Program-made: the position numbers and the translations under genes
Virus record (IMG/VR): IMGVR_UViG_2547132272_000023
DNA: 26,093 nt
Source: a virus
Taxonomy: Duplodnaviria > Heunggongvirae > Uroviricota > Caudoviricetes
Strand: one strand, 5' to 3'
Notes under the pieces: generated by a model
Database searches by the model: none
What the model was told of the DNA's origin: nothing
The model's input: only the letters and a program-made list of their open reading frames with translations
In this document: positions 1,411 to 26,093 of the stretch, one piece after another
Numbering within the stretch: the stretch's first letter is position 1
Layout: the number at the start of each line of letters is the position of its first letter

Positions 1411-1430
1411 TTAATTAGGTTTATTCTTGT

Positions 1431-1453
1431 TAACCACCTCATAGAGGTGGTTA
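1431..1453. terminator. Perfect 10-bp inverted repeat (TAACCACCTC-ATA-GAGGTGGTTA) between convergent genes; putative bidirectional terminator
   Basis: Read directly from sequence; lies in the 47-bp gap between the orphan ORF stop (1410) and the Q stop (1458), AT-rich flanks. Confidence 0.4.
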
Positions 1454-1457
1454 TTAA

Positions 1458-4258: not shown

Positions 4259-4304
4259 GGCACAAACCTACAGCCTTGAATGAAGGCTTTCCCCGCCTGC
4301 GGTT

Positions 4305-4322
4305 TGTGTGGTTGTCGGTACA
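4305..4322. promoter_or_regulatory. TGT-N12-ACA dyad in the P/O divergent intergenic region; putative Ogr-dependent late promoter element (PO and/or PP)
   Basis: Sequence TGTgtggttgtcggtACA about 80 bp upstream of the O start codon; matches the P2 late-promoter activator-binding dyad as recalled. Confidence 0.4.
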
Positions 4323-4400
4323 AATACCGCGCATTGTTTCACTGCCCCCATCACCGCAACCATAAGGCTCCAGTAAGTTTTTTCTAACGGAGCACGGCTC

Positions 4401-5234
4401 ATGACAGTGAAAGCAAAGCGTTTTCGCATCGGGGTGGAAGGTGCCACCACCGACGGACGCGAAATCCAGCGTGAATGGCTGGAACAGATGGCAGCCAGCT
4501 ACAACCCGGCGGTGTATACCGCGCTGATTAACCTTGAGCACATCAAGTCTTATCTGCCGGACAGCACCTTTAACCGCTACGGCAAGGTGACGGCGCTGTT
4601 TGCTGAAGAAATCACGGAAGGTCCGCTGGCAGGCAAGATGGCGCTGTATGCCGACGTTGAGCCAACGGAGTCCCTGGTGGAACTGGTGAAAAAAGGCCAG
4701 AAATTATTCACCTCTATGGAAGTCAGCCCGAAGTTCGCTGATACGGGCAAAGCCTATCTGGTCGGCCTGGCGGCCACTGATGACCCTGCCAGTCTGGGTA
4801 CGGAAATGCTGACATTCAGCGCCAGTGCAGCCCATAACCCGCTGGCAAACCGCAAGCAGAATCCTGCCAATCTCTTTACCGCTGCAGAGGAAACGGTGAT
4901 CGAACTGGAAGAAATCCAGGACGACAAACCGTCCCTGTTTGCCCGCGTCACGGCGCTGTTTACCAAAAAAGAGCAGTCCGATGACGCCCGGTTCTCTGAT
5001 GTGCATAAGGCCGTGGAGCTGGTCGCCACTGAGCAGCAGAACCTGAGCGCACGCACCGAAAAATCCCTGTCTGAGCAGGAAGAACGCCTGTCTGAGCTGG
5101 AGACTGCCCTGCAGGCACAGCAAACCGCCTTTAACGAACTGGTGGACAAGCTGAGTCATGAAGACAGTCGCCAGGACTACCGCCAGCGTGCAACAGGCGG
5201 TAACGCCCCCGCTGACACTCTGACCAATTGCTGA
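4401..5234 (+). CDS. O: Capsid scaffolding protein (P2 gpO-like)
   Basis: 277 aa (P2 O about 284 aa), first gene of the O-N-M-L operon; acidic, coiled-coil-like C-terminal half. Confidence 0.85.
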   Translation: MTVKAKRFRIGVEGATTDGREIQREWLEQMAASYNPAVYTALINLEHIKSYLPDSTFNRYGKVTALFAEEITEGPLAGKMALYADVEPTESLVELVKKGQKLFTSMEVSPKFADTGKAYLVGLAATDDPASLGTEMLTFSASAAHNPLANRKQNPANLFTAAEETVIELEEIQDDKPSLFARVTALFTKKEQSDDARFSDVHKAVELVATEQQNLSARTEKSLSEQEERLSELETALQAQQTAFNELVDKLSHEDSRQDYRQRATGGNAPADTLTNC

Positions 5235-5250
5235 TGGAGCACAAAACCCG

Positions 5251-6309
5251 ATGAAGAAGAATACCCGCTTTGCTTTTAACGCTTACCTGCAGCAGCTGGC
5301 GCGTCTGAACGGTGTGGCAGTTGAAGAACTGTCCAGCAAGTTCACCGTGGAGCCGTCTGTGCAGCAGACGCTGGAAGACCAGATCCAGCAGTCCGCCGCT
5401 TTCCTGACGCTGATTAACGTCACGCCAGTGACTGAGCAGTCCGGTCAGCTGCTGGGGCTGGGAGTTGGCAGCACCATTGCCGGAACCACTGACACCACCG
5501 CGAAAGAGCGTGAACCTGTCGATCCGACGCTGATGGTCGATGTGGAATATAAATGCGAGCAGACCAACTTTGACACGGTGCTGACCTACGCGAAGCTGGA
5601 CCTGTGGGCGAAGTTTCAGGATTTCCAGGTGCGCATCCGTGACGCCATCGTGAAACGTCAGGCTCTGGACCGCATCATGATCGGCTTTAACGGCGTGAAG
5701 CGTGCGAAAACCTCCAACCGTAGCGAAAACCCGCTGCTGCAGGATGTGAACAAAGGCTGGCTGCAGAAAATCCGTGAAGATGCACCGGATCACGTCATGG
5801 GCAGCACCACCACGGGCGGTGAAACCACACCGGGTGCGGTGAAAGTCGGGAAAGGTGGCGAATATGCCAACCTGGACGCCGTGGTGATGGATGCCGTCAA
5901 TGAGCTTATCGATGTGGTCTACCAGGACGATGACGATCTGGTGGTGATTTGCGGTCGTGAACTGCTGTCTGACAAGTATTTCCCGCTGGTCAACAAAGAG
6001 CAGGAAAACAGTGAAAAACTGGCTGCCGATATGATCATCAGTCAGAAACGCATGGGTGGCCTGCAGGCCGTGCGTGCGCCGTTCTTCCCGCCGAATGCAC
6101 TGCTGATCACCCGTCTGGATAACCTGTCCATCTACTGGCAGGAAGACACCCGCCGCCGCTCAGTTATCGACAACCCGAAACGTGACCGGATTGAAAACTT
6201 TGAATCCGTTAACGAAGCCTATGTGGTTGAGGACTACCGCTGCGCCGCACTGGTGGAAAACATCCAGATTGGCGACTTCAGCGCCGCAGCAGCAGAAACC
6301 GGAGCGTAA
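5251..6309 (+). CDS. N: Major capsid protein (P2 gpN-like)
   Basis: 352 aa, immediately downstream of the scaffold gene; position and length as P2 N. Confidence 0.85.
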   Translation: MKKNTRFAFNAYLQQLARLNGVAVEELSSKFTVEPSVQQTLEDQIQQSAAFLTLINVTPVTEQSGQLLGLGVGSTIAGTTDTTAKEREPVDPTLMVDVEYKCEQTNFDTVLTYAKLDLWAKFQDFQVRIRDAIVKRQALDRIMIGFNGVKRAKTSNRSENPLLQDVNKGWLQKIREDAPDHVMGSTTTGGETTPGAVKVGKGGEYANLDAVVMDAVNELIDVVYQDDDDLVVICGRELLSDKYFPLVNKEQENSEKLAADMIISQKRMGGLQAVRAPFFPPNALLITRLDNLSIYWQEDTRRRSVIDNPKRDRIENFESVNEAYVVEDYRCAALVENIQIGDFSAAAAETGA

Positions 6310-6312
6310 TTC

Positions 6313-6963
6313 ATGAGCCTGAGTCCCGCACGGCAGCATCGCCTGCGCGTTCAGGCTGAACAGGCCGCCCGCGAGGGCGGCAGCGTTCGCCACGCGTCGG
6401 GCTATGACCTGATGCTGCTGCAACTGGCGGAAGACCGCCGCCGTCTCAAGGGCGTTCAGTCCACGGTCAAAAAAGCGGAAATCAAGGTGGAGCTGCTGCC
6501 GAAGTACGCCGCCTGGGCGGAGGGTGTCCTGGCTGCCGGAGGCGCTCAACAGGATGACGTGCTGATGTACGTGATGCTGTGGCGCATTGATGCCGGAGAT
6601 TATGCCGGGGCGCTGGAGATCGGGCGTCACGCCCTGCGTCATGGCTGGGTGATGCCGTTAGGTAACCGCAACGTGCAGACCGTGCTGGCAGAGGAAATGG
6701 CAGATGCAGCCCAGAGCGCAATGCTTGCCGCCACCGGCTTTGATGCCGATCTGTTGCTGCAGACCCTGGAGCTGACAGACGGTATGGATATGCCGGACCA
6801 GTCACGGGCGCGTCTGCATAAAGCGATTGGCGCTGTCCTGAGTGAAAGAAATCCGGCGTCTGCCCTTAATCATCTCAACCATGCGTTACAGCTCGATCCC
6901 CGCTGTGGCGTGAAAAAAGACAAACAGCAGCTGGAGCGCAGACTGCGCAATGACAGCCGCTGA
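6313..6963 (+). CDS. M: Terminase small/endonuclease subunit (P2 gpM-like)
   Basis: 216 aa ORF starting 4 bp after the N stop; position as P2 M. Confidence 0.8.
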   Translation: MSLSPARQHRLRVQAEQAAREGGSVRHASGYDLMLLQLAEDRRRLKGVQSTVKKAEIKVELLPKYAAWAEGVLAAGGAQQDDVLMYVMLWRIDAGDYAGALEIGRHALRHGWVMPLGNRNVQTVLAEEMADAAQSAMLAATGFDADLLLQTLELTDGMDMPDQSRARLHKAIGAVLSERNPASALNHLNHALQLDPRCGVKKDKQQLERRLRNDSR

Positions 6964-7058
6964 CAGAACGTGCCCCCGCGCACGGGCGGCACGGGGTGGC
7001 GAAAGGCACTGCCACATCAAAACCCCGTCCACCGCCCTCTATTTCAGGAGAAAGCAGC

Positions 7059-7523
7059 ATGAAGTTTGTTGCGCCAGAACAGGCACCGGAACAGGCGGAA
7101 ATCATCAGGAATACGCCGTTCTGGCCTGATGTGGACCTGTCGGAGTTTCGCAGTGTGATGCGCACTGACGGCACGGTGACGCAGCCGCGTTTAAAACAGG
7201 TTGCCCTGTCGGCAATTTCGGAGGTCAACGCAGAGCTGTATGAGTTTCGCAGACGCCAGCAGATGCTGGGGTATGCCTCGCTGGCAGAAGTCCCGGCGGA
7301 ACAACTGGACGGCAAAAGCGAGCGCATTCAGCACTATTTCAACGCGGTTTACTGCTGGGCACGCGCCATGCTCAACGAACGTTACCAGGACTATGACGCC
7401 ACGGCATCCGGTGCGAAGCGAGGCGAGGAACTGGCGGAAGCAAGCGGTGATTTATGGCGTGACGCCCGCTGGGCCATCCGCCGGGTGCAGGATGCGCCGC
7501 ACTGCACAGTGGAGCTTATCTGA
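7059..7523 (+). CDS. L: Head completion/stabilisation protein (P2 gpL-like)
   Basis: Start chosen at ATG 7059, preceded by AGGAG at 7046-7050; the longer ORF from 6996 has no ribosome-binding site. Position as P2 L. Confidence 0.75.
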   Translation: MKFVAPEQAPEQAEIIRNTPFWPDVDLSEFRSVMRTDGTVTQPRLKQVALSAISEVNAELYEFRRRQQMLGYASLAEVPAEQLDGKSERIQHYFNAVYCWARAMLNERYQDYDATASGAKRGEELAEASGDLWRDARWAIRRVQDAPHCTVELI

Positions 7524-7726
7524 TGAAAGTGCGTGCGCATCAGTATGACACGGTGGACGCGCTTTGCTGGCGTCATTACGGGCGCACGCAGGGTGTCACG
7601 GAGCAGGTACTGAAGGCAAATCCGGGGCTTGCCGAATATGGCCCCTTTTTACCTCACGGGCTGCAGGTGGAGCTGCCGGACATTCCGACCACCACCACCG
7701 TGCAGACCGTCCAGCTATGGGACTGA
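7523..7726 (+). CDS. X: Tail protein X (P2 gpX-like)
   Basis: 67 aa, same length as P2 X; start overlaps the L stop. Confidence 0.7.
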   Translation: MKVRAHQYDTVDALCWRHYGRTQGVTEQVLKANPGLAEYGPFLPHGLQVELPDIPTTTTVQTVQLWD

Positions 7727-7729
7727 ATT

Positions 7730-7945
7730 ATGACGCTTGAGCGAATCAGCGCCTTTATCACGTATTGCATCGCCGTCGTGCTGGCCTGGCTGGGCGATTT
7801 GTCCATCAAGGATGCCTCAACGCTGGGCGGCCTGATGATTGGTGTGCTGATGCTGGCTATCAACTGGTACTACAAACACAAAGCCTACCAGCTTCTGCGC
7901 GACGGGCAGATCTCGCGGGAGGACTATGAATCCATCAATCGTTAA
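7730..7945 (+). CDS. Y: Holin (P2 gpY position)
   Basis: 71-aa protein with hydrophobic helices and a charged C-terminus, directly upstream of the endolysin gene. Confidence 0.7.
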   Translation: MTLERISAFITYCIAVVLAWLGDLSIKDASTLGGLMIGVLMLAINWYYKHKAYQLLRDGQISREDYESINR

Positions 7946-8438
7946 ACGCTGCCTTGTCGGGGCCGTGCTGGCTATTGCTGCCACGCTGCCGGGTTTTCAG
8001 CAGCTTCACACCTCCGTGGAGGGGCTGAAACTGATTGCCGATTACGAAGGTTGTCGTCTGCAGCCGTATCAGTGCAGCGCGGGTGTCTGGACCGACGGCA
8101 TTGGTAATACGTCAGGCGTCATTCCCGGCAAAACCATTACGGAGCGACAGGCAGCAGAAGGGCTGATCTCCAACGTGCTGCGTGTCGAGCGGGCGCTGGA
8201 AAGGTGTGTGAAGCAACTGCCGCCGCAGAAGGTGTATGACGCTGCGGTGTCGTTTGCCTTCAACGTGGGAACAGGCAATGCCTGCAGTTCCACGCTGGTG
8301 AATTTACTCAATCAGCGGCGCTGGGCAGATGCGTGCCGACAGTTGCCGCGCTGGGTTTATGTGAAAGGTGTTTTTAATCAGGGGCTGGATAACCGCCGTG
8401 CGCGGGAGATGGCCTGGTGTTTACAGGGAGCAAACTGA
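7926..8438 (+). CDS. K: Endolysin/lysozyme (P2 gpK-like), with hydrophobic N-terminal segment
   Basis: 170 aa; N-terminus MNPSIVKRCLVGAVLAIAATLPG is hydrophobic (possible signal-anchor-release type), followed by a lysozyme-like region; overlaps the Y stop. Confidence 0.8.
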   Translation: MNPSIVKRCLVGAVLAIAATLPGFQQLHTSVEGLKLIADYEGCRLQPYQCSAGVWTDGIGNTSGVIPGKTITERQAAEGLISNVLRVERALERCVKQLPPQKVYDAAVSFAFNVGTGNACSSTLVNLLNQRRWADACRQLPRWVYVKGVFNQGLDNRRAREMAWCLQGAN

Positions 8439-8439
8439 A

Positions 8440-8817
8440 ATGAAAAAGAAATTAATCAGCGGACTGTTTCTGATGTTATGGATGGCGCTGTTAATCGCAG
8501 CAATGGTGTATCCGCAGGGGATTTTTCCGGTACTGGCAGCGTCCGGCGTTTGGGTAGCCTGTTTGCTGACATGGGCGGTAATTCCGGTAGCACTGGCTGC
8601 GTTAATTAAGAATGGCCCGCTCTGGCAGGAGTTAAGGGCATCTTTGCTGAAGACAATTACCCGAAAAGAAAACGTATTTACCAGTTGGGTGATGCGATTG
8701 CTGATTGTTGTAAGTCTCGCCTGGACGGGGTGGGCTATTACCCTGGTCTTTTATCTACTGACCGTTATTGCCTTCTGGATCACCCGTAATCAGATGGCGC
8801 AACAGGTAGCAGCATGA
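8440..8817 (+). CDS. lysA: Lysis timing membrane protein (P2 LysA-like)
   Basis: Start at ATG 8440 preceded by GGGAG (8426-8430), one nt after the K stop; multi-pass hydrophobic protein. Confidence 0.6.
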   Translation: MKKKLISGLFLMLWMALLIAAMVYPQGIFPVLAASGVWVACLLTWAVIPVALAALIKNGPLWQELRASLLKTITRKENVFTSWVMRLLIVVSLAWTGWAITLVFYLLTVIAFWITRNQMAQQVAA

Positions 8818-9242
8818 ACCGGTTGCTGCTGGTTGTGCTGACGTTATTACTGGCGGCGCTGGGCTGGCAGACGTGGCGGCTGGCTGATGCCAGCCAGACC
8901 ATCAGCACGCAGGCAGACGAGCTGCAGAGCAAAAGCCAGGCACTGGCAAAGAGCAATAGCCAGCTTATCAGCCTGTCCATTCTGACTGAAACCAATAACC
9001 GGGAGCAGGCGCGGCTCTATGCCGAAGCAGAACAGACCAGCACGCTGCTGAGACAACGACAACACCGGATCGAGGAACTGAAACGTGAGAACGAGGATTT
9101 ACGCCGCTGGGCTGATACTCCTTTGCCTGCTGACATTATCCGGCTGCGGAAACGTCCGGCACTCACCGGAGGTATGGCTTACCGTCAGTGGTTGTCCGCG
9201 AGTGACGCCGTGTCGGCTGGATCAGGCAACGCCGCGCACTAA
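8814..9242 (+). CDS. lysB: Inner-membrane spanin, Rz-like (P2 LysB-like)
   Basis: 142 aa; N-terminal transmembrane helix then a Q/E/R-rich coiled-coil region; ATGA overlap with lysA. Confidence 0.7.
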   Translation: MNRLLLVVLTLLLAALGWQTWRLADASQTISTQADELQSKSQALAKSNSQLISLSILTETNNREQARLYAEAEQTSTLLRQRQHRIEELKRENEDLRRWADTPLPADIIRLRKRPALTGGMAYRQWLSASDAVSAGSGNAAH

Positions 9243-9375
9243 CGGTGATCTGAACGCATTGCTGGATGAAACGGAGGCCGCCTGGGCGGTCTGTGCAGAC
9301 AAAGTGGACATGATTATTGCATGTCAGGAGCGAAACAGTGAACAAACCACAATCCCTGCGCCACGCCCTCAATAA
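9085..9375 (+). CDS. lysC: Outer-membrane lipoprotein spanin, Rz1-like (P2 LysC-like), out of frame within the lysB 3' end
   Basis: Signal peptide with lipobox LTLSGC near the N-terminus; nested in a different frame across the lysB 3' end and running into R, the usual embedded spanin architecture. Confidence 0.6.
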   Translation: MRTRIYAAGLILLCLLTLSGCGNVRHSPEVWLTVSGCPRVTPCRLDQATPRTNGDLNALLDETEAAWAVCADKVDMIIACQERNSEQTTIPAPRPQ

Positions 9376-9769
9376 AGCAGTGCCTTATGTCCGTAATAAC
9401 CCGGACAAACTGCATCTGTTTGTGGATAACGGTTCGCTGGTTGCCACGGGGGCCAACTCCATGTCATGGGAGTACCGCTACACCCTGAACGTGGTGATTG
9501 AGGATTTCAGCGGCGACCAGAATCTGCTGATGGCCCCGGTTTTGCTGTGGCTGCGGGATAACCAGCCCGATGCCATCAATAACCCGGCGTTACGGGAAAA
9601 GCTATTCACCTTTGATGTGGATATTTTGCGCAACGATGTCTGTGATATCAGCCTTAACCTGCAACTGACGGAACGTGTGCTGGTCAGCACTGACGGCAGT
9701 GTGTCGAGCGTTGAAGCTGTAGCAGAACCCGATGAACCTGAAGAAATGTGGACGGTGAAACGTGGCTGA
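9338..9769 (+). CDS. R: Tail completion protein (P2 gpR-like)
   Basis: GTG start at 9338 with AGGAG 8 nt upstream; the track ORF from 9317 begins with TTG and has no ribosome-binding site. Confidence 0.7.
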   Translation: MNKPQSLRHALNKAVPYVRNNPDKLHLFVDNGSLVATGANSMSWEYRYTLNVVIEDFSGDQNLLMAPVLLWLRDNQPDAINNPALREKLFTFDVDILRNDVCDISLNLQLTERVLVSTDGSVSSVEAVAEPDEPEEMWTVKRG

Positions 9770-10208
9770 ACTGCAGAAGGTGGACGACTGGCTGAGTGCC
9801 TTGCTGGCGAATCTGGAACCAGCCACGAGAAGCCGCATGATGCGCCAGCTGGCGCAGGAACTGCGCCGGACACAGCAGCAGAATATCAGGATGCAGCGCA
9901 ATCCAGATGGCAGCAGTTATGAACCGCGCAGGGTAACAGCACGCAGCAAGAAGGGGCGCATCAAACGTCAGATGTTTGCAAAGCTGCGCACCACAAAATA
10001 CCTGAAAACTGCCGCCAGCGCCGACTCTGCCAGCGTGCAGTTTGAAGGTAAGGTGCAGCGCATTGCCCGTGTTCACCATTACGGCCTGCGAGATCGCGTC
10101 AGTCGTAAGGGACCGGAGGTGCGTTACGCAGAGCGTCGCCTTCTGGGTGTAAATGATGATGTTGAGGCAATGACCCGCGACATGATTCTGCAATGGCTGG
10201 CGGGGTGA
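9762..10208 (+). CDS. S: Tail completion protein (P2 gpS-like)
   Basis: 148 aa (P2 S about 150 aa); overlaps the R stop. Confidence 0.7.
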   Translation: MAELQKVDDWLSALLANLEPATRSRMMRQLAQELRRTQQQNIRMQRNPDGSSYEPRRVTARSKKGRIKRQMFAKLRTTKYLKTAASADSASVQFEGKVQRIARVHHYGLRDRVSRKGPEVRYAERRLLGVNDDVEAMTRDMILQWLAG

Positions 10209-10212
10209 TCTT

Positions 10213-10230
10213 TGTATCAGCACTGATACA
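10213..10230. promoter_or_regulatory. TGT-N12-ACA dyad upstream of V; putative Ogr-dependent late promoter PV
   Basis: TGTatcagcactgatACA in the 68-bp S-V intergenic region, about 47 bp upstream of the V start codon. Confidence 0.45.
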
Positions 10231-10276
10231 AGTTGCAGCACTGCCGCCTTTCTTCCCCTGATGGCAACCTTTCCCT

Positions 10277-10855
10277 ATGAACGCACAATTAACCGAAATC
10301 ATGCGCCTTATCACCAACCTGATCCGCACAGGGGTAGTCACCGAAGTGGACAGGGAAAACTGGCTTTGCCGGGTGAAAACGGGCGAGCTTGAAACCAACT
10401 GGATCAGCTGGCTGACGCTGCGTGCCGGGAATGCCCGTACATGGTGGCGACCATCGGAAGGTGAGCAGGTGGTGCTGCTGAGTCTGGGCGGCAATCTGGA
10501 AACCGCCTTTGCGCTGCCCGCTGTCTATTCGAATCAGTTCGCACCACCGTCGACGTCGGCGGACGCCTGCGTGACAGAACATCCTGACGGTGGCTGGTTT
10601 GAATACGAACCCGCCACCGGGCGCTGGTATGTCAGGGGCATCAAATCAATGGTCATTGAGGCTGCTGACAACATCACCATGAAAACCAGTGAGTTTGTAC
10701 TGGAGGCTGACCGCACGCGCATTAACAGCGAAGTGGTGATCAATGGTGGCGTTACCCAGGGCGGCGGAGCGATGAGTTCTAACGGGATCGTGGTTGATGC
10801 GCATCAGCATACTGGCGTCCTGAAAGGCGGCGATACAACCGGAGGCCCGGTATGA
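10277..10855 (+). CDS. V: Baseplate assembly/spike protein (P2 gpV-like)
   Basis: 192 aa, first gene after the putative PV promoter; position as P2 V. Confidence 0.75.
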   Translation: MNAQLTEIMRLITNLIRTGVVTEVDRENWLCRVKTGELETNWISWLTLRAGNARTWWRPSEGEQVVLLSLGGNLETAFALPAVYSNQFAPPSTSADACVTEHPDGGWFEYEPATGRWYVRGIKSMVIEAADNITMKTSEFVLEADRTRINSEVVINGGVTQGGGAMSSNGIVVDAHQHTGVLKGGDTTGGPV

Positions 10856-11211
10856 CGCTTTATAGCGGGATGAACAATACCAGCGGCAAAGTCATTACTG
10901 ATATTGATCATCTGCGCCAGTCGGTGCGGGACATTCTGCTGACACCGCAGGGTAGCCGTATTGCCCGCCGGGAATATGGTTCCCTGCTGTCGGCACTGAT
11001 AGATCAGCCACAAAATCCGGCATTACGCCTGCAGGTCATGTCGGCAGTGTATGTGGCGCTGAGTCGCTGGGAGCCACGGTTGACGCTGGATTCCATCACC
11101 ATCAACAGCAATTTTGACGGTTCAATGGTGGTGGAGCTGACCGGGCGGCGGAATAACGGTGTGCCTGTGTCCCTTTCCGTATCAACAGGAGCAGAGAATG
11201 GCAGTGATTGA
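10852..11211 (+). CDS. W: Baseplate wedge protein (P2 gpW-like)
   Basis: 119 aa (P2 W about 115 aa); ATGA overlap with V. Confidence 0.75.
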   Translation: MTLYSGMNNTSGKVITDIDHLRQSVRDILLTPQGSRIARREYGSLLSALIDQPQNPALRLQVMSAVYVALSRWEPRLTLDSITINSNFDGSMVVELTGRRNNGVPVSLSVSTGAENGSD

Positions 11212-12106
11212 CCTTTCGCAGTTGCCTGCACCGCAGATTGTGGATGTGCCGGACTTTGAGACGCTGCTTGCCGAACGCAAGGCAGAATTTGTGGCGCTTC
11301 ATCCGAAAGATGAGCAGGAAGCAGTGATCCGCACGCTGGAACTGGAATCTGAACCCGCCACTAAATTGTTGCAGGAGAACGCTTACCGTGAGTTGCTTCT
11401 GCGCCAGCGCATTAACGAAGCCGCGCAGGCGGTGATGGTGGCTTACGCGATGGGTGGCGATCTTGACCAGCTCGCTGCCAACTACAACGTGACACGCCTG
11501 ACGGTGACGCCTGCTGATAATGATGCTGTGCCGCCCGTTGCAGCTGTGATGGAAAGCGATGAAGCGTTGCGCCTGCGTGTGCCTGCAGCCTTTGAAGGGC
11601 TTTCTGTTGCGGGGCCAACTGCAGCTTATGAATTTCATGCCCGAAGCGCCGACGGTCGGGTGGCGGATGCCAGTGCAACCAGCCCGGCACCTGCAGAGGT
11701 GGTACTGACTGTCCTTAGCCGCGAAGGCGATGGAACTGCAGAAAAAGACCTGCTGGACGTGGTGGAAAAAGCTCTGAACAGTGAGAACGTCCGCCCGGTG
11801 GCTGACCGTCTTACGGTTCGCAGCGCAGAAATCATCCCGTATCGCGTGGAAGCCACCATTTTTCTCTATCCGGGACCGGAAGCAGAGCCGGTAATGGCAG
11901 CGGCAAAAGCCAGTCTGCAGAAGTACATTGCCAGCCAGACGAGGCTTGGTCGGGATATTCGCCGTAGCGCCATCTTTGCTGCTCTGCATGTTGAGGGTGT
12001 TCAACGTGTGGAACTGGCTTCTCCGCTGGCGGATGTGGTCCTGAACAAAACACAGGCGGCATCATGTACGCAGTGGAGCGTAACCAACGGAGGAACGGAT
12101 GAATAG
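11198..12106 (+). CDS. J: Baseplate assembly protein (P2 gpJ-like)
   Basis: ATG 11198 preceded by AGGAG (11184-11188) gives 302 aa, the P2 J length as recalled; the longer track ORF from 11159 lacks a ribosome-binding site. Confidence 0.8.
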   Translation: MAVIDLSQLPAPQIVDVPDFETLLAERKAEFVALHPKDEQEAVIRTLELESEPATKLLQENAYRELLLRQRINEAAQAVMVAYAMGGDLDQLAANYNVTRLTVTPADNDAVPPVAAVMESDEALRLRVPAAFEGLSVAGPTAAYEFHARSADGRVADASATSPAPAEVVLTVLSREGDGTAEKDLLDVVEKALNSENVRPVADRLTVRSAEIIPYRVEATIFLYPGPEAEPVMAAAKASLQKYIASQTRLGRDIRRSAIFAALHVEGVQRVELASPLADVVLNKTQAASCTQWSVTNGGTDE

Positions 12107-12704: not shown

Positions 12705-14128
12705 GCACAAAATTTTATACCCTGCTGACGGATATTGGCGCGGCGAAACTTGCCAGCGCCGCCGCGCTCGGTGTGCCGCTAAAAATTACCCATATGGCGG
12801 TGGGCGATGGCGGCGGAGCATTGCCGACGCCGGACGCAAAGCAGACTGCACTGGTAAATGAGAAACGCCGGGCTGCGCTGAATATGCTCTATATCGACCC
12901 GCAGAACAGCAGCCAGATTATTGCTGAACAGGTGATCCCTGAAAACGAGGGCGGTTGGTGGATACGTGAAGTGGGCCTGTTTGATGAGTCAGGGGCATTG
13001 ATTGCCGTGGGCAACTGCCCGGAAAGCTATAAACCGCAACTGGCTGAAGGCAGCGGGCGTACCCAGACCGTACGGATGGTGCTGATTACCAGCAGTACCG
13101 ATAATATCACACTGAAAATTGACCCTTCAGTGGTGCTGGCAACCCGCAAGTATGTGGATGACAAGGTGCTTGAGCTTAAGGTGTATGTGGATGACCTGAT
13201 GGCAAAGCATCTTGCTGCTGCAGATCCTCATACGCAGTATGCGCCCAAAGACAGCCCAACATTGACTGGCACGCCGAAAACGCCAACAGCACCGGCGGGA
13301 ACTAACACGACTCAGATTGCTAGCACGGCATTTGTGCAGGCGGTGGTCACTGCGCTAAATAACGCACTGGCGTTGAAAGCTCCACTGGCAAGTCCGGCCC
13401 TGACCGGAACGCCGACGGCTCCGACTGCAGCGCAGACGGCGAACAATACGCAGATTGCCACCACGGCATTTGTGAAAGCGGCAGTTGCCGAGATGGTCGG
13501 TTCATCGCCGGAGGCGCTGGATACGTTAAATGAATTGGCTGCTGCGCTGGGGAATGATCCTAACTTTGCGACAACAGTAATGAGTGCGCTGGCGGGAAAA
13601 ATGAACAAAGCAGCTAATGGCGCTGATATTGCCGATGTTTCTGCTTTTCTAAAAAACCTTCATCTTGGGGAGGGCAGTGCGTTGCCAGTCGGTGTTCCTG
13701 TTCCGTGGCCTACTGCAATACCGCCGGAAGGTTGGTTGAAGTGTAATGGAGCATCATTCAGTTCCTCGCAATATCCGAAACTGGCGCAGGTTTATCCGTC
13801 ATTAAAATTACCAGATCTACGCAGTGAGTTTATTCGCGGCTGGGACGATGGGCGTGGCGTAGACGCTGGACGTCAGGTTCTAACGTCTCAGACTGATGCT
13901 ATGCAGCCGATTATCGGCTCCATTGGCTATGGTACAAACGGTATGTTTACTTATGCTGATGGAGCTTTTACGGGTATAGATCGTGAAAGCGGAGACGGTA
14001 TTGTTACACAGGCAACAAGCATCTCACAATATAAACAGGCTCACTTAGATTCAAGTACGATAACACGAACAGCGGCAGAAACACGTCCACGGAATATTTC
14101 ATTTAATTACATTGTGAGAGCAGCATAA
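12701..14128 (+). CDS. H: Tail fibre protein (P2 gpH-like N-terminal part, exchanged C-terminal collar-type domain)
   Basis: N-terminal region including NELAAALGNDPNFATT resembles the conserved part of P2 H; C-terminal part carries a tail-collar-like segment (PVPWPTAIPPEGWLKCNG...LPDLRSEFIRGWDDGRGVDAGR) encoded by lower-GC DNA. Confidence 0.8.
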   Translation: MSTKFYTLLTDIGAAKLASAAALGVPLKITHMAVGDGGGALPTPDAKQTALVNEKRRAALNMLYIDPQNSSQIIAEQVIPENEGGWWIREVGLFDESGALIAVGNCPESYKPQLAEGSGRTQTVRMVLITSSTDNITLKIDPSVVLATRKYVDDKVLELKVYVDDLMAKHLAAADPHTQYAPKDSPTLTGTPKTPTAPAGTNTTQIASTAFVQAVVTALNNALALKAPLASPALTGTPTAPTAAQTANNTQIATTAFVKAAVAEMVGSSPEALDTLNELAAALGNDPNFATTVMSALAGKMNKAANGADIADVSAFLKNLHLGEGSALPVGVPVPWPTAIPPEGWLKCNGASFSSSQYPKLAQVYPSLKLPDLRSEFIRGWDDGRGVDAGRQVLTSQTDAMQPIIGSIGYGTNGMFTYADGAFTGIDRESGDGIVTQATSISQYKQAHLDSSTITRTAAETRPRNISFNYIVRAA

Positions 14129-14724
14129 TGACAGAAGCGAAACTAAATAATGAGTTTATAGCTGTGGAATCTGGCAATATAACGGTGTTTAACTTTGATA
14201 TTGAAACTCGTGAATATCTTTCTTCTAGTGTTGAATTTCTTGCTGTAGGGGTTGGGATTCCTGCTAATTCATGCATTGATATGCCGGGTAAAAGTAAAAA
14301 AGGGTTAACCATTTGCCGGACTAAGGATCTTACCGCGTGGGAATATATTGCTGATCATCGAGGTGAGACTGTTTACAGCACCGAAACTGGCAAAAAAATA
14401 GCTGTAACAGTGCTCGGCGATTACCCAGAAAAAACTACGAAACTACCTCCTGCTACACCATACGATAAGTGGAACGGTAGTGCATGGGTGACAGATACCG
14501 AGATGCAGCACGAGGTTGACGTGGAAACTGCTGATCAGAAGAAAGCGGAGCTTCTGGCAAAGGCTCAGCTAACAATCAATCTATGGCAGACAGAACTACA
14601 ATTAGGAATTATCAGTGATGAAGATAAAGTCAGACTAATCACCTGGATGAATTACATCAAAGCGGTGCAGTTGGTAGACACGTCAACTGCGCCAGATATA
14701 ACGTGGCCGAGGAAGCCCGAGTGA
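14128..14724 (+). CDS. G: Tail fibre assembly chaperone (P2 gpG position)
   Basis: 198 aa, start overlaps the H stop (TAATG); lower GC than the backbone, consistent with co-exchange with the H C-terminus. Confidence 0.7.
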   Translation: MTEAKLNNEFIAVESGNITVFNFDIETREYLSSSVEFLAVGVGIPANSCIDMPGKSKKGLTICRTKDLTAWEYIADHRGETVYSTETGKKIAVTVLGDYPEKTTKLPPATPYDKWNGSAWVTDTEMQHEVDVETADQKKAELLAKAQLTINLWQTELQLGIISDEDKVRLITWMNYIKAVQLVDTSTAPDITWPRKPE

Positions 14725-14809
14725 CTGAGAATTAAATGGTTAGTATCATCCTCCCCCACACTGCCTATATGGTATGAATACGAGGGGGAGGCTGTTTGTT
14801 GTCTGTTTC

Positions 14810-14818
14810 TGTGATAAT
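14810..14818 (+). promoter_or_regulatory. Putative extended -10 element (TGtGATAAT) for the acyltransferase cargo gene
   Basis: TG motif one base upstream of a GATAAT hexamer, about 35 bp upstream of ATG 14852; no good -35 hexamer. Confidence 0.3.
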
Positions 14819-14851
14819 ATTAGATTCCCGTTTTTTAATAAAAAAATCAAT

Positions 14852-15862
14852 ATGAAAGAGAATAAAATACGTTCTGCCGATGGCGTGAGAGGTTTCGCTT
14901 TGATGATTGTTGTGGTGATGCATTCTACGGGACTATTCTTTCCCTCACTTCATGATCATCTCGGAGGTACGGGGCAGCCCGGTGTTTGGTTGTTTTTTGT
15001 TCTTAGCGCCTTTTTGTTGACACATAAATTTATTAATTCTGGTTTTTCGTTTTTGAATGTGTTGAGTTATCTTTTAGGGCGAACAATAAGGATATTACCG
15101 ATTTTTTATATTGCAGTATTAATTTATTACCTTATGGGATTTTATGATTTAGAGAAAATGAAATCGATAATTTCATTTGATAGTACTTACATCCATCTCT
15201 GGACTATTCCGATAGAATTCAAGTTTTACTTTTTGTTGCCGATTGTGGTTTATCTCGCATCTAGTATCCAGAAAGTTGCAGGTAGAAAATATTCTTTGTT
15301 GTTTTTGATATTGTTAACCTTAGCGTTCGCTTTTATATACCCTTATACGGATGACGAAATCAACGGTAGGCTACCGTATTACATTCCTGTTTTTATGTAT
15401 GGAATTATAATTGCGTTTATGTATAACTATTTTCAAATTAAAATATCATCTCTCGTTAGTGATGGGGTGTCAATTGCGATTATATTAATATTTATAATGT
15501 TGACCCCTCCTTTTCAGGGGGCTAATGGTTGGCTGGGTAATAAATTTGTGGTATTGGGGCCATTTATTGCTCTCTTTGTATATCTGCAAGTAAATTCCAG
15601 TGGGTATGTAAGCGCGGTTTTATCTTCAAAAATCATGGCGGATTTGGGGAAATATAGTTTTTCAATTTATTTGTTTCATATAATGATAATTTTTATTGTT
15701 TATCCTAAATTTTTGGATAATGTTACTGCATACTTAGTTACTATAGCTTTATGTATTGGCGGTGGGGCTATTGCCTATCATTGCATTGAATCTCCCTTGG
15801 AATCGTTCAGACATAAGCTTATGAAAAGAATAACGCAGGCTTATCAGAATCAAAATATTTAA
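14852..15862 (+). CDS. Acyltransferase-3 family integral membrane protein; putative O-antigen/surface-polysaccharide acetyltransferase (lysogenic conversion cargo at the Z/fun position)
   Basis: N-terminus KIRSADGVRGFALMIVVVMH fits the conserved R...G.RG.A......H start of acyltransferase-3 proteins; about ten hydrophobic helices; strongly AT-rich; located between G and FI. Start placed at ATG 14852 rather than the track start 14774. Confidence 0.7.
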   Translation: MKENKIRSADGVRGFALMIVVVMHSTGLFFPSLHDHLGGTGQPGVWLFFVLSAFLLTHKFINSGFSFLNVLSYLLGRTIRILPIFYIAVLIYYLMGFYDLEKMKSIISFDSTYIHLWTIPIEFKFYFLLPIVVYLASSIQKVAGRKYSLLFLILLTLAFAFIYPYTDDEINGRLPYYIPVFMYGIIIAFMYNYFQIKISSLVSDGVSIAIILIFIMLTPPFQGANGWLGNKFVVLGPFIALFVYLQVNSSGYVSAVLSSKIMADLGKYSFSIYLFHIMIIFIVYPKFLDNVTAYLVTIALCIGGGAIAYHCIESPLESFRHKLMKRITQAYQNQNI

Positions 15863-16090: not shown

Positions 16091-17263
16091 ATGGCTCAGG
16101 ATTACCACCACGGGGTGCGCGTTGTTGAAGTCAACGAAGGCACCCGATCCATTACCACGGTGAGCACCGCCATCGTGGGTATGGTCTGCACGGGCGATGA
16201 TGCCGATGCAAAAATGTTTCCTCTTAATAAACCTGTACTGATCACTGACGTGCTGACTGCCAGCGGTAAAGCGGGTGAGTCCGGCACGCTGGCCCGTTCG
16301 CTGGATGCCATCGCTGACCAGGCAAAACCCGTGACCGTTGTTGTGCGTGTGCCGCAGGGTGAAACGGAAGAAGAAACCACGACCAATATCATCGGCGCAG
16401 TGACTGCTGAAGGTAAAAAAACAGGCATGAAAGCCCTGTTATCTGCCCAGACACAGCTCGGCGTTAAACCGCGCATTCTCGGCGTGCCAGGTCACGATAA
16501 CAAAGCCGTTGCTACTGAGTTGCTGAGTGTGGCGCAAAGCCTGCGTGGGTTTGCCTACCTGTCAGCGTATGGCTGCAAGACGGTACAGGAGGCGATCACT
16601 TACCGTGAAAATTTCAGCCAGCGCGAAGGAATGCTGATCTGGCCTGACTTTACTGGCTGGGACACGGTGCTGAATGCCGAAGCAACGGCATATGCCACCG
16701 CCCGTGCGCTTGGTCTGCGTGCCAAAATTGATGAGCAGACCGGGTGGCACAAAAGCCTGTCCAACGTGGGCGTGAACGGTGTCACCGGAATTTCTGCAGA
16801 TGTGTTCTGGGATCTGCAGGACCCGGCAACCGATGCAGGTCTGCTGAACCAGAACGACGTCACCACACTTGTGCGTAAAGACGGTTTCCGCTTCTGGGGT
16901 TCCCGCTGCCTGAGTGATGACCCGCTCTTTGCCTTCGAAAACTACACCCGCACGGCGCAGGTGCTGATGGACACGATGGCAGAAGCACACATGTGGGCGG
17001 TGGATAAACCGCTTAACCCGTCGCTGGCCCGCGACATTATCGAAGGTATCCGCGCCAAAATGCGCAGCCTGGTCAGTCAAGGCTATCTCATTGGTGGTGA
17101 TTGCTGGCTGGATGAGTCGGTGAACGACAAAGACACGCTGAAAGCCGGAAAACTCACCATCGACTATGACTACACGCCAGTGCCGCCACTTGAAAATCTG
17201 ATGCTGCGCCAGCGCATCACCGATCAGTACCTGGTGAATTTTGCCAGCCAGGTCAGCGCGTAA
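16091..17263 (+). CDS. FI: Contractile tail sheath protein (P2 gpFI-like)
   Basis: 390 aa (P2 FI about 396 aa); N-terminus [32 protein letters not shown] closely resembles the P2 FI N-terminus as recalled. Confidence 0.9.
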
Positions 17264-21349: not shown

Positions 21350-21831
21350 TGATGGTGCTGGGATTGTACGTGTTTATGCTGCGCACCGTACCGTATCAGG
21401 AGCTGCAGTATCAACGCAGCTGGCGACATGCGGCAAACAGTCGGGTAAATCGTCGTCCGTCCACGCAGTTTCTGGGACCGGACAACGACATGCTGACGCT
21501 TTCTGGTGTTCTTATGCCGGAGATAACAGGCGGCAGGCTGTCGTTGCTGGCACTGGAGCAGATGGCAGAACAGGGGAAAGCATGGCCCCTGATTGAAGGC
21601 AGCGGCACGATTTATGGCATGTATGTGATTGAGGGACTGAATCAGACTAAAACGGAGTTTTTCCGCGATGGTATGCCGCGCCGGATTGAGTTCACCCTGT
21701 CGCTCAAACGGGTGGATGAATCCCTGTCCGATATGTTCGGTGATCTCAGTACGCAACTGAATAATCTGCAGGACACGGCAACATCTGCCTTAAGTGATAT
21801 CAGTAAAACGGTGGGAGGGCTGCTGTCGTGA
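21346..21831 (+). CDS. U: Tail protein (P2 gpU-like)
   Basis: 161 aa (P2 U about 159 aa); ATGA overlap with T. Confidence 0.8.
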   Translation: MMMVLGLYVFMLRTVPYQELQYQRSWRHAANSRVNRRPSTQFLGPDNDMLTLSGVLMPEITGGRLSLLALEQMAEQGKAWPLIEGSGTIYGMYVIEGLNQTKTEFFRDGMPRRIEFTLSLKRVDESLSDMFGDLSTQLNNLQDTATSALSDISKTVGGLLS

Positions 21832-22928
21832 ATTTCAGCTCTGAACTGCTTAACAAAGGCAACAAAACTCCCGCATTCAGCATCAGTATTGAGGGCAGGG
21901 ATATCACTACTGTGCTGGATAACCGTCTGATGAGTCTGACGTTGACGGACAATCGGGGCTTTGACGCGGACCAGCTTGATCTGGAGCTGGACGACGCCGA
22001 CGGAAAAATCGTGCTGCCGCGCCGTGGTGCGGTCATTACGCTGGCGCTGGGCTGGAAGGGGCAGCCGCTTTTCCCGAAAGGGACATTCACGGTGGACGAG
22101 ATTGAACACACTGGCGCACCGGACCGCCTGACTATCCGGGCGCGAAGTGCTGATTTTCGGGAAGCGCTGAATACCCGCCGTGAAAAATCGTGGCATAAGA
22201 CCACCGTCGGGGAAGTGGTGAAGGAAATAGCCGCGCGGCACAAGCTGAAGATGGCACTGGGTAAAGACCTGTCGGATAAGCCCGTGGAGCATATAGACCA
22301 GACTAATGAGAGTGACGGCAGTTTTCTGATGCGGCTGGCGCGACAGTACGGTGCCATCGCGTCGGTGAAAAATGGCAATCTGTTATTCATCCGGCAGGGG
22401 CAGGGCAAAAGCGCCACTGGTAAACCTCTGCCAGTGATCACTATCACACGCAAGGACGGCGACAGTCACCGATTTACCCTGGCAGATCGCGGAGCCTACA
22501 CGGGCGTAATTGCCAGCTGGTTGCATACCCGCGAACCTGCGAAGAAAGAAAGCACCACGGTGAAGCGTAAGCGCAGAACTAAGAAGCAGAAGAAAGAGCC
22601 AGAAGCGAAGCAGGGCGATTACCTGGTGGGTACGGATGAAAACGTGCTGGTACTTAATCGCACTTATGCCAACCGGAGCAACGCCGAACGAGCGGCGAAA
22701 ATGCAGTGGGAACGCCTGCAACGCGGCGTTGCGTCATTTTCGCTACAACTGGCAGAAGGGCGGGCAGATCTCTACACGGAAATGCCTGTGAAGGTCAGTG
22801 GTTTTAAACAGCCGATAGATGATGCGGAATGGACCATTACGACTCTGACGCATACCGTCAGCCCGGATAACGGTTTTACGACCAGTCTGGAGCTTGAAGT
22901 GAGGATTGATGATTTCGAAATGGAATGA
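21828..22928 (+). CDS. D: Tail protein / late control gene D (P2 gpD-like)
   Basis: 366 aa; last late structural gene before ogr, as in P2; overlaps the U stop. Confidence 0.85.
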   Translation: MNFSSELLNKGNKTPAFSISIEGRDITTVLDNRLMSLTLTDNRGFDADQLDLELDDADGKIVLPRRGAVITLALGWKGQPLFPKGTFTVDEIEHTGAPDRLTIRARSADFREALNTRREKSWHKTTVGEVVKEIAARHKLKMALGKDLSDKPVEHIDQTNESDGSFLMRLARQYGAIASVKNGNLLFIRQGQGKSATGKPLPVITITRKDGDSHRFTLADRGAYTGVIASWLHTREPAKKESTTVKRKRRTKKQKKEPEAKQGDYLVGTDENVLVLNRTYANRSNAERAAKMQWERLQRGVASFSLQLAEGRADLYTEMPVKVSGFKQPIDDAEWTITTLTHTVSPDNGFTTSLELEVRIDDFEME

Positions 22929-23018
22929 TTCTTCGCAATGGAGAACTTTTAAGTTTGCAAAATGGAATAATGCGGTATCATTATTGTGAATTTAGCAAAA
23001 ATGGGGAGAACTCGAAAA

Positions 23019-23237
23019 ATGATGATTTGCCCACTGTGTGGAAGTGCCGCCCATACTCGCAGCAGTTTTCAGGTATCTTCATTGACCAAAGAGCGTTACA
23101 ACCAGTGCCAGAACATTAACTGCAGCCATACTTTTGTTACCCATGAAACTTTTGTTCGTTCGATTGCAACGCCAAAAGAGTCAAATCCGGTTCAGCCGCA
23201 TCCAATGAAATCAGGACAGGTGGCGCTCTCTCTTTGA
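23019..23237 (+). CDS. ogr: Zinc-finger late transcription activator (P2 Ogr-like)
   Basis: ATG 23019 with GGGGAGA upstream gives 72 aa, the P2 Ogr length; Cys4 motif CPLCG-X22-CQNINC near the N-terminus. Confidence 0.8.
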   Translation: MMICPLCGSAAHTRSSFQVSSLTKERYNQCQNINCSHTFVTHETFVRSIATPKESNPVQPHPMKSGQVALSL

Positions 23238-23317
23238 CGCTGCCGCCATTTTGTCGCCATCGTTAAAAAACAGTGCTTCTAACATCATGATTTTAAACAG
23301 CTTAAATTTCAGGCAAC

Positions 23318-23360
23318 AAAAAACCCATCAACCTTGAACCGAAATGGCGGGGTTGATGGG
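23318..23360 (-). terminator. Rho-independent terminator of ybjL (hairpin plus U-tract on the minus strand)
   Basis: CCCATCAACC (23324-23333) pairs with GGTTGATGGG (23351-23360); on the minus strand the hairpin is followed by TTTTTTGT. The 17-nt loop is rather large. Confidence 0.4.
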
Positions 23361-23472
23361 CTCCACAAAATGGGGACATCAAAGAAAAGCAGTGGCACTA
23401 ATTAAGACTGATGCCCCGAGGAAAAGTTCTGCGGTTGTACAAAAAAATTTCATTTTTGGGGCAACTTCAGTT

Positions 23473-25158
23473 TTATCCGAGTCCTGGCCATACCATTACG
23501 ATGATTGTCCCTGCCAGCGTCAGCAGTACGTTAGCTATTGCATAAGTGCCCGCATAACCTAAGGCCGGGATGTTGCTGCGCGCAGTGTCGCTGATGATCT
23601 CCATTGCCGGAGCACAAGTACGTGCGCCCATCATTGCACCGAATAACAGCGCGCGGTTCATGCGCAGCACATAAGCGCCAAACAGGAAGCAAATAACAAC
23701 GGGCACCAGGCTGACAATTAACCCGGCAATCAACATCTGACCGCCAATCGCACCCAGGCCGTTATTGATGCCACTACCGGCGCTTAAACCCACGCCCGCC
23801 ATAAATACCATCAAACCGAACTCTTTCACCATGCTTAACGCGCCCTGGGGAATATAGCCGAAGGTCGGGTGGTTCGCTCGCATAAAGCCCAGCATAATAC
23901 CAGCGAATAACAATCCGGCGGCGTTACCCATGCCGAAGCTGAATGTGCTGAACTGGAAGGTGATCATCCCGATCATCAGACCGATGACAAAGAACGCGCA
24001 GAATGCCAGTAGATCGGTAACCTGGCTGTGAATCGAGATAAAGCCGATGCGATCGGCGATGGTTTTCACGCGACGGGCATCGCCGCTCACCTGCAATACA
24101 TCGCCTTTATTAAGCACCACGTTATCGTCGATCGGCATTTCGATCTGGCTGCGGATGACGCGGTTAAGGAAACAACCGTGATCGGTCAGCTTCAGTTGTG
24201 CCAGGCGTTTACCGACAGCGTTATGGTTTTTGACGACCACCTCTTCAGTGACGATACGCATGTCGAGAAGATCTCGATCAAAAACTTCTTTACCGTTACG
24301 GAAGCTGGGATCGAGTCGGGCGTGGGCGTCGGGATATCCTACCAACGCTATTTCATCGCCCATCTGTAGCACGGCGTCACCATCCGGATTTGCCAGAATC
24401 CCGTTACGACGAATACGTTCAATGTAGCAACCGGTTTGTCGATAAATACCCAGTTCGCGCAAGTTTTTGCCATCGGCCCAGGCGACCAGTTCCGGCCCGA
24501 CGCGGTAGGCGCGAATGACCGGCAGATAGACTTTACGGCTGGCGTCGGTATCCAGACCCCGTTCACGAGCGATTTGTTGGGCGCTGGTTTGTAAGTCCTG
24601 ATGCTGCAACTTAGGCAAGTAACGCGCACCGACAATCAAACTCACCAGGCCAATCAAATAGGTTAATGCATACCCGAGGCTTAAATTATCCAGTGCCGCA
24701 GAGAGCTGCCCGCTTTCTATTCCTGAGTGGCGTAAGGTATCGCCCGCACCAACCAAAACCGGTGTTGATGTCATTGAACCAGCCAACATACCGGCCGTCA
24801 GGCCGATGTCCCAGCCAAACAACTTACCCAGTCCTAAGGCGATCAGCAGTGCACTACCGACCATTACCAGGGCTAACATTAGGTAATTTTTCCCATCGCG
24901 GAAAAAAATGGAAAAAAAGTTGGGTCCGGCTTCGACCCCGACGCAGAAAATAAACAGCATAAAGCCAAGATTAAGCGCGTCGGTGTTAATACTGAAATGT
25001 TGTTGACCTAATAACAGTGATACGACTAAAACGCCAATGGAATTACCCAGTTGGATTGAACCAAGTCGTAATTTTCCGAGACATAGTCCAAGCGCGAGGA
25101 CCACGAATAATAACAGAATGTAATTCCCATTTAACAATTCGGCGACGTTTATATTCAC
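23473..25158 (-). CDS. ybjL: Putative transporter of the AspT/YidE/YbjL family (host chromosomal gene)
   Basis: 561 aa, two hydrophobic transporter halves separated by a soluble central region; N-terminus [29 protein letters not shown] recognised as E. coli YbjL from memory; lies next to ybjM and grxA as in E. coli K-12. Confidence 0.8.
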
Positions 25159-25426
25159 GGAGACTAACTTCTTGTTTACGAGTAAGCTGTTGAAAGAAAT
25201 GGTAATTTAAGATAATGTTTTTACCTGAATTCAGAGCGCAGATTCATTCAGCGCACTTAATCAATAGTAAAGTAACAATATATTTTACTAGTGTAATCAC
25301 ATTAGATACCAACGGCTATAAGAATTGTGTTGGCCTATATTAGCATGGAATGCGAAGCGGCTTTATCTTACTGAGCGCCACACCGGCGAAAAATGTGTTC
25401 GATAGAGGCAGTGTCAGGAGGAACAT

Positions 25427-25804
25427 GTGAAACATAAACAACATTGGGCGGGGGCAATTTGCTGTTTTGTCCTCTTTATTGTGGTGTGCCTTTTTCTGGC
25501 GACACATATGAAGGGAGCTTTTCGGGCTGCCGGGCACCCTGAAATCGGCTTACTGTTTTTCATTCTTCCTGGGGCTGTAGCCAGCTTTTTTTCGCGGCGT
25601 AGAGAAGTCCTTAAACCACTGTTTGGCGCAATGCTGGCAGCACCGTGTTCTATGTTAATTATGCGTCTGTTTTTTTCACCATCACGCTCATTCTGGCAGG
25701 AGCTGGCGTGGTTGTTGAGTGCCGTCTTCTGGTGTGCGCTGGGCGCATTATGTTTTTTGTTTATCAGTAGCTTGTTCAGGCCGCAACACAGAAAAAATCA
25801 ATAA
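25427..25804 (+). CDS. ybjM: Inner membrane protein YbjM (host)
   Basis: 125-aa hydrophobic protein between ybjL and grxA, the K-12 arrangement. Confidence 0.65.
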   Translation: MKHKQHWAGAICCFVLFIVVCLFLATHMKGAFRAAGHPEIGLLFFILPGAVASFFSRRREVLKPLFGAMLAAPCSMLIMRLFFSPSRSFWQELAWLLSAVFWCALGALCFLFISSLFRPQHRKNQ

Positions 25805-25826
25805 AGCCCTCAAACAGAGAGGGCTT
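25804..25826. terminator. Bidirectional terminator hairpin between convergent ybjM and grxA
   Basis: AAGCCCTC-aaacaga-GAGGGCTT stem-loop between the two stop codons. Confidence 0.4.
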
Positions 25827-25835
25827 ATCCGGTAA

Positions 25836-26093
25836 TCAGGCGTCAAGATTCTCTTTCACCCAGGCAGCAAAATCGGTATAGCCACCGATGTGTTGCTGAT
25901 CGACAAAAATCTGCGGTACGGTTTCTACCGGCTTGCCAGCTTTCTGTTGCAGATCCTCTTTAGTGATCCCTTCAGTACGAATATCCACATACTGATAGTG
26001 AAAATCATCGTGTTCATTACTTAACTTTTCTGCCAAATCTTTGGCACGCACGCAGTAAGGGCAACCCGGACGACCGAAAATAACGGTTTGCAT
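25836..26093 (-). CDS. grxA: Glutaredoxin 1 (host)
   Basis: 85 aa with the CPYC active site (GRPGCPYCVRAK); the start codon coincides with the last base of the window. Confidence 0.85.
   Translation of the reverse strand: MQTVIFGRPGCPYCVRAKDLAEKLSNEHDDFHYQYVDIRTEGITKEDLQQKAGKPVETVPQIFVDQQHIGGYTDFAAWVKENLDA

Follow-up and report, generated by a model that had tools for sequence, protein, structure and literature searches.

The site-specific recombination system of phage P2 comprises an attP (locI) with a 27-bp core, together with Int, IHF and Cox. Integration into the 3' ends of tRNA and tmRNA genes, as Williams reportedly described in 2002, is known from HP1, 186, P4 and Fels-2. RybB is a sigmaE-dependent, Hfq-binding sRNA. 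The insertion of P2-like prophages at rybB is real, common and already published, and the base-level anatomy presented here is a matter of detail, not of discovery. In Table 2 of Archer et al. (2011), the "rybB ncRNA" hosts P2-type prophages in E. coli W, B and Crooks, where the elements are named Rybb*W, Rybb*B (REL606) and Rybb*Cr, while other P2-type elements of the same table, including the K-12 ogr-D' remnant, are located at cyaR, not rybB (PMC3032704). Hochhauser, Millman and Sorek (2023) described E. coli defence-island hotspot #29, which is occupied only by Felsduovirus prophages within rybB (PMC10121019), and Hudson et al. (2014) found the Klebsiella prophage island Kpn38RybB "precisely within" rybB (PMC4048246). 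A literature search combining "P2-like" with "ybjL" returned nothing, the site being published as rybB, and Bobay et al. (2013), cited for rybB by Hochhauser et al., does not name the gene in its main text.

The DNA studied here is a stretch of 26,093 nt (hereafter the window), in which positions 23238 to 23472 very probably represent the attR of a P2-like prophage that entered the 3' end of rybB by tyrosine-integrase-mediated site-specific recombination. The target (rybB between rcdA and ybjL) and the type of phage are the same as in the elements of E. coli W, B and Crooks (PMC3032704). In contrast to these, the host is a non-coli Escherichia with about 90% nucleotide identity to E. coli, and the cargo consists of PD-T7-1 and an acyltransferase, whereas Rybb*B carries retron Ec86. 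The prophages of hotspot #29 bear variable defence systems at dedicated slots (PMC10121019), and the phage of the window has PD-T7-1 in a slot of this kind. The anatomy of the att site is not given in that paper, whose count is 109 genomes; here, the ogr-ybjL junction, in the order ogr-rybB-ybjL, was found in 1115 of 5426 complete E. coli genomes (about 20%). Klebsiella phage 4LV2017 (Elveevirus, KY271398) shares about 96% nucleotide identity over most of the structural genes of the window and 98% from ogr to attR, and its attL and attR are annotated as (g)caggcaacaaaaaacccat, which is the same core. However, 4LV2017 and Kpn38RybB differ from the present prophage in the host genus, in the length of the perfect repeat (19-20 bp, against 21 bp here) and in their reverse transcriptase cargo. 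The likeness to P2 lies in the gene order D-ogr-att-int, the heterobivalent tyrosine integrase, the putative arm sites on both arms and the short core, whereas the core sequence and the target are different and the integrase is just 39% identical to P2 Int. As in HP1, 186, P4 and Fels-2, the core and the 3' end of a gene for a structured RNA overlap, this gene is intact afterwards, and the integrase is 49% identical to HP2 Int; unlike at the tRNA and tmRNA sites, the target is an Hfq-dependent sRNA gene and the core corresponds to a terminator and its U-tract instead of a tRNA acceptor or T-arm.

The late genes of the window follow the P2 order (portal, terminase, GPO, capsid, lysis, baseplate, fibre, sheath/tube, tape-measure, U, D and ogr). 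Gene D (21828-22928, Phage_GPD) is followed by ogr (23019-23237, plus strand), the last prophage gene, which encodes a 72-aa late-gene activator (Pfam Ogr_Delta, 78 bits) and bears an identical label in E. coli genomes with the same junction. The first host protein gene is ybjL (23473-25158, minus strand), of the aspartate:alanine antiporter family (Pfam Asp-Al_Ex, 279 bits, and TrkA_C), in synteny with ybjM and grxA, the host genes that lie past it in the window. An earlier note, made from the sequence of the window alone, had placed the end of ogr at 23237 and the convergent end of ybjL at 23473, and both positions are confirmed by the ORFs and the Pfam matches. No phage ORF beyond ogr lies between ogr and ybjL in the window; further phage genes there were what the note had named as evidence against its reading. 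Its identification of a P2-like attR with ogr as the final phage gene is also borne out by the D-ogr order, the empty sites, attL and attP, and the comparison of these sequences indicates that the interval 23238-23472 is the place that contains the attR of a P2-like (Peduoviridae) prophage. The rcdA/ybjL interval, which the note had given as convergent, indeed reads rcdA → ← ybjL in E. coli: the two genes of the uninterrupted K-12-like locus, rcdA (plus) and ybjL (minus), are 174 bp apart. E. coli 2018-11-3CC has a complete 36-kb P2-like prophage at this site, in the order rcdA, hypothetical gene, int, ..., D, ogr and ybjL.

The window holds neither the other prophage end nor the integrase gene, and attL and int were taken from the near-identical contigs L004 and L110. 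For the delimitation of the core, attR of the window was aligned with attB of L019 (host flank 100% identical to that of the window), attL of L110 (same lineage and same phage) and the phage attP. Homology to the empty sites starts within 23303-23315. A 21-bp perfect direct repeat, TTCAGGCAACAAAAAACCCAT (23308-23328), is common to attR, attL, attB and attP in this host lineage, and the shared sequence amounts to 26 bp from 23303 if one mismatch, at 23307, is allowed. In E. coli, the three-way comparison of attB (L002) with attL and attR (L001) left 14 bp in common, AACAAAAAACCCAT (23315-23328); this minimal core is the sole identity of attP with the K-12-type E. coli attB. Everywhere to the left of 23315, attL has host bases and attR has phage bases, and this holds for both hosts; the exchange of strands must therefore fall inside the 14-bp AACAAAAAACCCAT. 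Read as its reverse complement, the core is AUGGGUUUUUUGUU(GCCUGAA), which consists of the final 11 nt of RybB and of bases downstream; these 11 nt cover part of the 3' stem arm of the terminator and the U-tract. The earlier note had expected the core within about 23238-23320, upstream of the hairpin; its actual position (23308 or 23315 to 23328) overlaps the hairpin and exceeds that limit by 8 bp.

The comparisons that had been proposed together with this expectation gave positive results. Prophage-free, uninterrupted sites were found in L019, L017, L002 (E. coli, K-12-like), E. albertii and E. whittamii. The empty sites of the same lineage, L019 and L017, have the sequence GAGATAAA(A/T)TTCAGGCAACAAAAAACCCATCAACC, and that of L019 reads GAGATAAAATTCAGGCAACAAAAAACCCATCAACC with rcdA adjacent. 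The duplicated core appears as a 21-bp repeat at attL of L110 and as a 14-bp repeat in E. coli L001. In the metagenome contig L110, attL reads ...GAGATAAAATTCAGGCAACAAAAAACCCAT followed by TTATGTAAACGGG; L110 shares 99.98% identity with L019 over its left 4266 nt and 99.9% with L004, int included, over its right 5722 nt. The integrase gene lies just inside this other junction, 75 bp from the core in L004, with the same layout in L001 and L110. Finally, the record of phage KP12 contains ogr, the P arm, the core, the P' arm and int contiguously, which corresponds to an uninterrupted attP. The sequences themselves show how the junction is built, that the core is duplicated, that the site exists empty, that attP is contiguous and that rybB is intact.

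The gene at the junction is rybB (most likely 23318-23396, minus strand), with the 5' end placed according to the RybB sequence (GCCACUGC...). Rfam model RF00110 matched positions 23315-23393 of the minus strand over its whole length (1-79 of 79) with 105.3 bits, against a gathering score of 40 (E = 1.8e-22). From 23396 down to 23315, through GGGUUUUUUGUU, the whole transcript is identical to that of the E. coli K-12-like rybB and has the same fold. Its terminator hairpin (23322-23362, minus strand) has a 12-bp stem according to folding, followed by U6, and the U-tract occupies 23318-23323 (minus strand). The hairpin was assessed by folding, since the terminator scan allows loops of up to 8 nt; the consensus scan of 22900-23600 called no terminator, and the loop of the rybB hairpin is larger than this limit. 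A predicted sigmaE-type promoter, GAACTT-N16-TCTTA (23403-23429, minus strand), precedes the RybB 5' end by 7 nt, and this was the sole match to the sigmaE consensus in the window, with 0.03 expected by chance. In the empty sites, the RybB sequence likewise lies between rcdA (ybjK) and ybjL, and rybB is transcribed in the same direction as ybjL. Because the RF00110 match is full-length, the sequence and fold are unchanged and the sigmaE-type motif is retained, rybB is intact with its own promoter, and the alignments identify the prophage as one inserted into the last bases of rybB that has left the gene intact. For annotation, the junction may be labelled "attR in rybB" and rybB be annotated at 23318-23396 (minus strand).

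Another reading would be that no gene was targeted, the phage having entered an anonymous intergenic position upstream of the ybjL terminator, in the 3' flank of that gene. The junction indeed lies between ogr and ybjL, the protein-centred RefSeq annotation has nothing in the rcdA/ybjL interval, and read-through from ybjL may be stopped by the rybB terminator as well, since both genes have the same direction. The note had taken this position, assigning the hairpin at 23318-23360 to ybjL. However, together with the preceding 57 nt the hairpin gives a full-length RybB match (105 bits; gathering score 40), which makes it the rybB terminator; this RNA has its own sigmaE-type promoter, and the last position of the duplicated core, 23328, falls within the stem. 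The position of the core end within the stem, together with the RybB match, therefore points to the 3' end of an RNA gene as the target, and insertion at an anonymous site is very improbable. Of the note's proposal the rcdA/ybjL interval stands, and the undefined ybjL flank gives way to the 3' end of rybB.

It could also be asked whether the locus is the fossil site of a decayed prophage, of which the attR scar and late genes persist without a functional integration module, given that the window stops before the early region and that int, the repressor gene and attL are outside. Against this, all the late genes of the window from portal to ogr are intact ORFs, and over its first 11.4 kb the window matches two contigs at 100% identity and L004 at 99.97%; L004 has a complete early region, int and attL. 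Moreover, L110, with the same phage and the same host lineage, has an intact attL, and near-identical integrases occur in records deposited as phage genomes (vB_EcoM-813R9 and Kp48xx). Decay to a remnant is thus hardly credible, marginally less so even than an anonymous target, and the junction is best read as the attR of a prophage integrated at the 3' end of rybB.

The phage-derived attachment arm (P arm of attP, kept in attR) covers 23238-23307 (plus strand). It is missing from the same-lineage empty sites L019 and L017 and contiguous with the P' arm in phage KP12; Klebsiella phage 4LV2017, in whose record an attR is annotated, has an arm of 98% identity. A candidate arm-type Int site, GCTGCCGCCATTTTGTCGCCA (23239-23259, plus strand), contains the 7-mers GCCGCCA and GTCGCCA at a distance of 11 bp; the 20-mer CTGCCGCCAnTTTGTCGCCA is present in both attP arms, 183 bp apart, and its copy in the window directly follows the ogr stop codon. 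An IHF-like site was read from the sequence at 23280-23292 (minus strand), where AATCATGATGTTA differs by 1 mismatch from the consensus WATCAANNNNTTR. The block TAAGTGATTGATT, which corresponds to TAACATCATGATT at 23280-23292, is found in diverse attR arms at a constant distance from the core, and its reverse complement is a perfect IHF consensus. When more than 20 attR arms from several genera were right-anchored on the core, they were otherwise unlike each other and had both motifs at a fixed distance. By analogy with characterized integrases, we infer that 23239-23259 is an arm-type Int site and 23280-23292 an IHF site.

The arms L022-L101, which come from many genera and were compared with window positions 23205-23328, keep GCTGCCGCCAyTTTGTCGCCA and the IHF-consensus block. 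Several P2-like lineages, with ogr just 47-73% identical, use the same attachment site. In a variant prophage of E. coli 2c3 at the same site (L003, 3387-4000), an extra gene encoding a hypothetical protein of 120 aa lies between ogr and the att arm; similarity to the window (BLAST, 87% over the whole match) resumes at the position after the ogr stop (23238), and GCTGCCGCCATTTTGTCGCCA is kept. The extra gene beside the retained motif indicates that elements of the att arm persist while the adjacent cargo varies. The integrase, as encoded in L004, has 350 aa with Int_N and Phage_integrase domains and is 99% identical to the integrases of phage records for E. coli and Klebsiella hosts.

Taken together, these features suggest the following course of integration. 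The phage attP carries a copy of the last 11 nt of RybB plus about 10 nt of the host sequence downstream, and recombination within AACAAAAAACCCAT yields a complete, unaltered rybB with its sigmaE promoter at attR, beside ogr. The second product is the displaced copy of the core at attL, beside int. According to folding, a different hairpin, AACCCGUUUACAUAAAUGGGUUUUUU, lies downstream of int in attP and attL, and its 3' half and T-run are made up of the core bases. At each side of the prophage, a terminator-like hairpin is thus completed by one shared sequence, which explains why rybB is untouched by the insertion. Binding by Int and IHF and the exact cleavage positions would resemble those of P2, HP1 and the lambda-type heterobivalent integrases. 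The temperate phage in this way uses a conserved sRNA terminator as a landing pad and leaves the host regulator unharmed.

Regarding the host, the flank of the window (23329-26093) is 100% identical to L019, 99.6% to L017 and 93% to a second group. Its identity to named species is 91.2% for E. whittamii, 89.9% for E. albertii and 89.8% for E. coli; judged by these values, the host is a non-coli Escherichia lineage, and it could be one of the cryptic-clade species (E. ruysiae or E. marmotae). In a comparison with contigs L004, L005 and L006, the identity of window positions 1-11410 was 100% for two other contigs and 99.97% for L004, which runs on through the complete early region to int and attL. 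The attL of L004 has the K-12-type host allele, i.e. an E. coli background. The presence of the same phage over 11.4 kb in E. coli and in a non-coli Escherichia therefore indicates, at the level of nucleotide identity, a recent transfer between Escherichia species. One phage (100% or 99.97% over 11.4 kb) is thus found at this site in both hosts, with close relatives in Klebsiella. A chimeric assembly of an E. coli phage with non-coli host DNA was considered and rejected, L110 independently joining both at attL.

Two cargo genes were noted in the window. The first gene (1-1410, plus strand) encodes a 469-aa PD-T7-1 anti-phage defence protein, recognized by a PADLOC model with 650 bits and with no Pfam match. 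It occupies a variable P2 cargo slot adjoining the portal gene (1458-2495, minus strand), and a gene identical to it is present on at least 24 public contigs. The other gene (14774-15862, plus strand) encodes a 362-aa membrane acyltransferase (Acyl_transf_3) in a cargo slot flanked by the genes for tail-fibre assembly (14128-14724) and the sheath (16091-17263), and is a candidate lysogenic conversion gene for the modification of surface polysaccharide. In the 93% lineage, a related prophage (L018) occupies the same site, and its slot likewise contains an Acyl_transf_3 gene, in reversed orientation.

The site itself is widespread. The 26-mer TTCAGGCAACAAAAAACCCATCAACC was found in 87 species-representative genomes, including Enterobacter, Citrobacter, Klebsiella, Kluyvera, Atlantibacter, Leclercia, Lelliottia, Scandinavium, E. 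albertii and E. whittamii. In several of these, such as E. albertii, E. whittamii, Atlantibacter and some Citrobacter, rcdA is its immediate neighbour, which corresponds to native empty sites; other occurrences adjoin an ogr homologue (47-100% identity) and represent attR of diverse P2-like phages. At least 87 species representatives of the Enterobacteriaceae have the same approximately 10 nt (GTTGCCTGAA) immediately after the RybB U-tract, and attP contains a copy of them. At the positions equivalent to 23303-23314 of the window, E. coli has two attB alleles, ATAAATTTCAGGCAAC and the K-12-type ATAAGTTTTAGATAAC, which differ by four clustered transitions in 10 nt; ATAAATTTCAGGCAAC is identical to attP and to many other Enterobacteriaceae. 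Since TTCAGGCAAC is native downstream of rybB in many other Enterobacteriaceae, its distribution suggests that it is the older form and that the K-12-type TTTTAGATAAC is a derived allele.

The occupancy of the two alleles was estimated from exact-match counts in the 5426 complete E. coli genomes, as raw counts that ignore phylogeny and sampling. The K-12-type attB, with 14 bp of identity with attP, was empty in 1956 cases and present as attL in 779 (28% occupied), whereas the ancestral-type attB, with 26 bp of identity, was empty in 1256 and present as attL in 114 (8% occupied). Hence the allele that is less like attP is occupied more often (about 28% versus about 8%, in raw counts that ignore phylogeny). 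Strict E-value cut-offs were used for the ancestral allele, as a loose E-value mixed empty sites, attL and phage-variant attR. A 33-mer "generic attL" (core plus TTATGTAAACGGGTTAATG) gave 731 genomes against 884 with the allele-specific attL query, the lower count being due to variation of the P' arms, and was left out of the comparison. It is conceivable, if rather unlikely, that GTTGCCTGAA is not a neutral spacer and that attB variation outside the 14-bp exchange region modulates lysogenisation or prophage retention. If that were so, and the difference survived phylogenetic correction, the effect would run opposite to simple homology length. The contrast in occupancy is a small lead at most and is not to be read as a mechanistic preference. 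Finally, a 724-bp contig labelled Actinoallomurus acaciae (L061) contains an E. coli-type rcdA-rybB-ybjL segment, with an RcdA of 99% amino acid identity to that of E. coli, and this segment is almost certainly a contamination of the actinomycete assembly.
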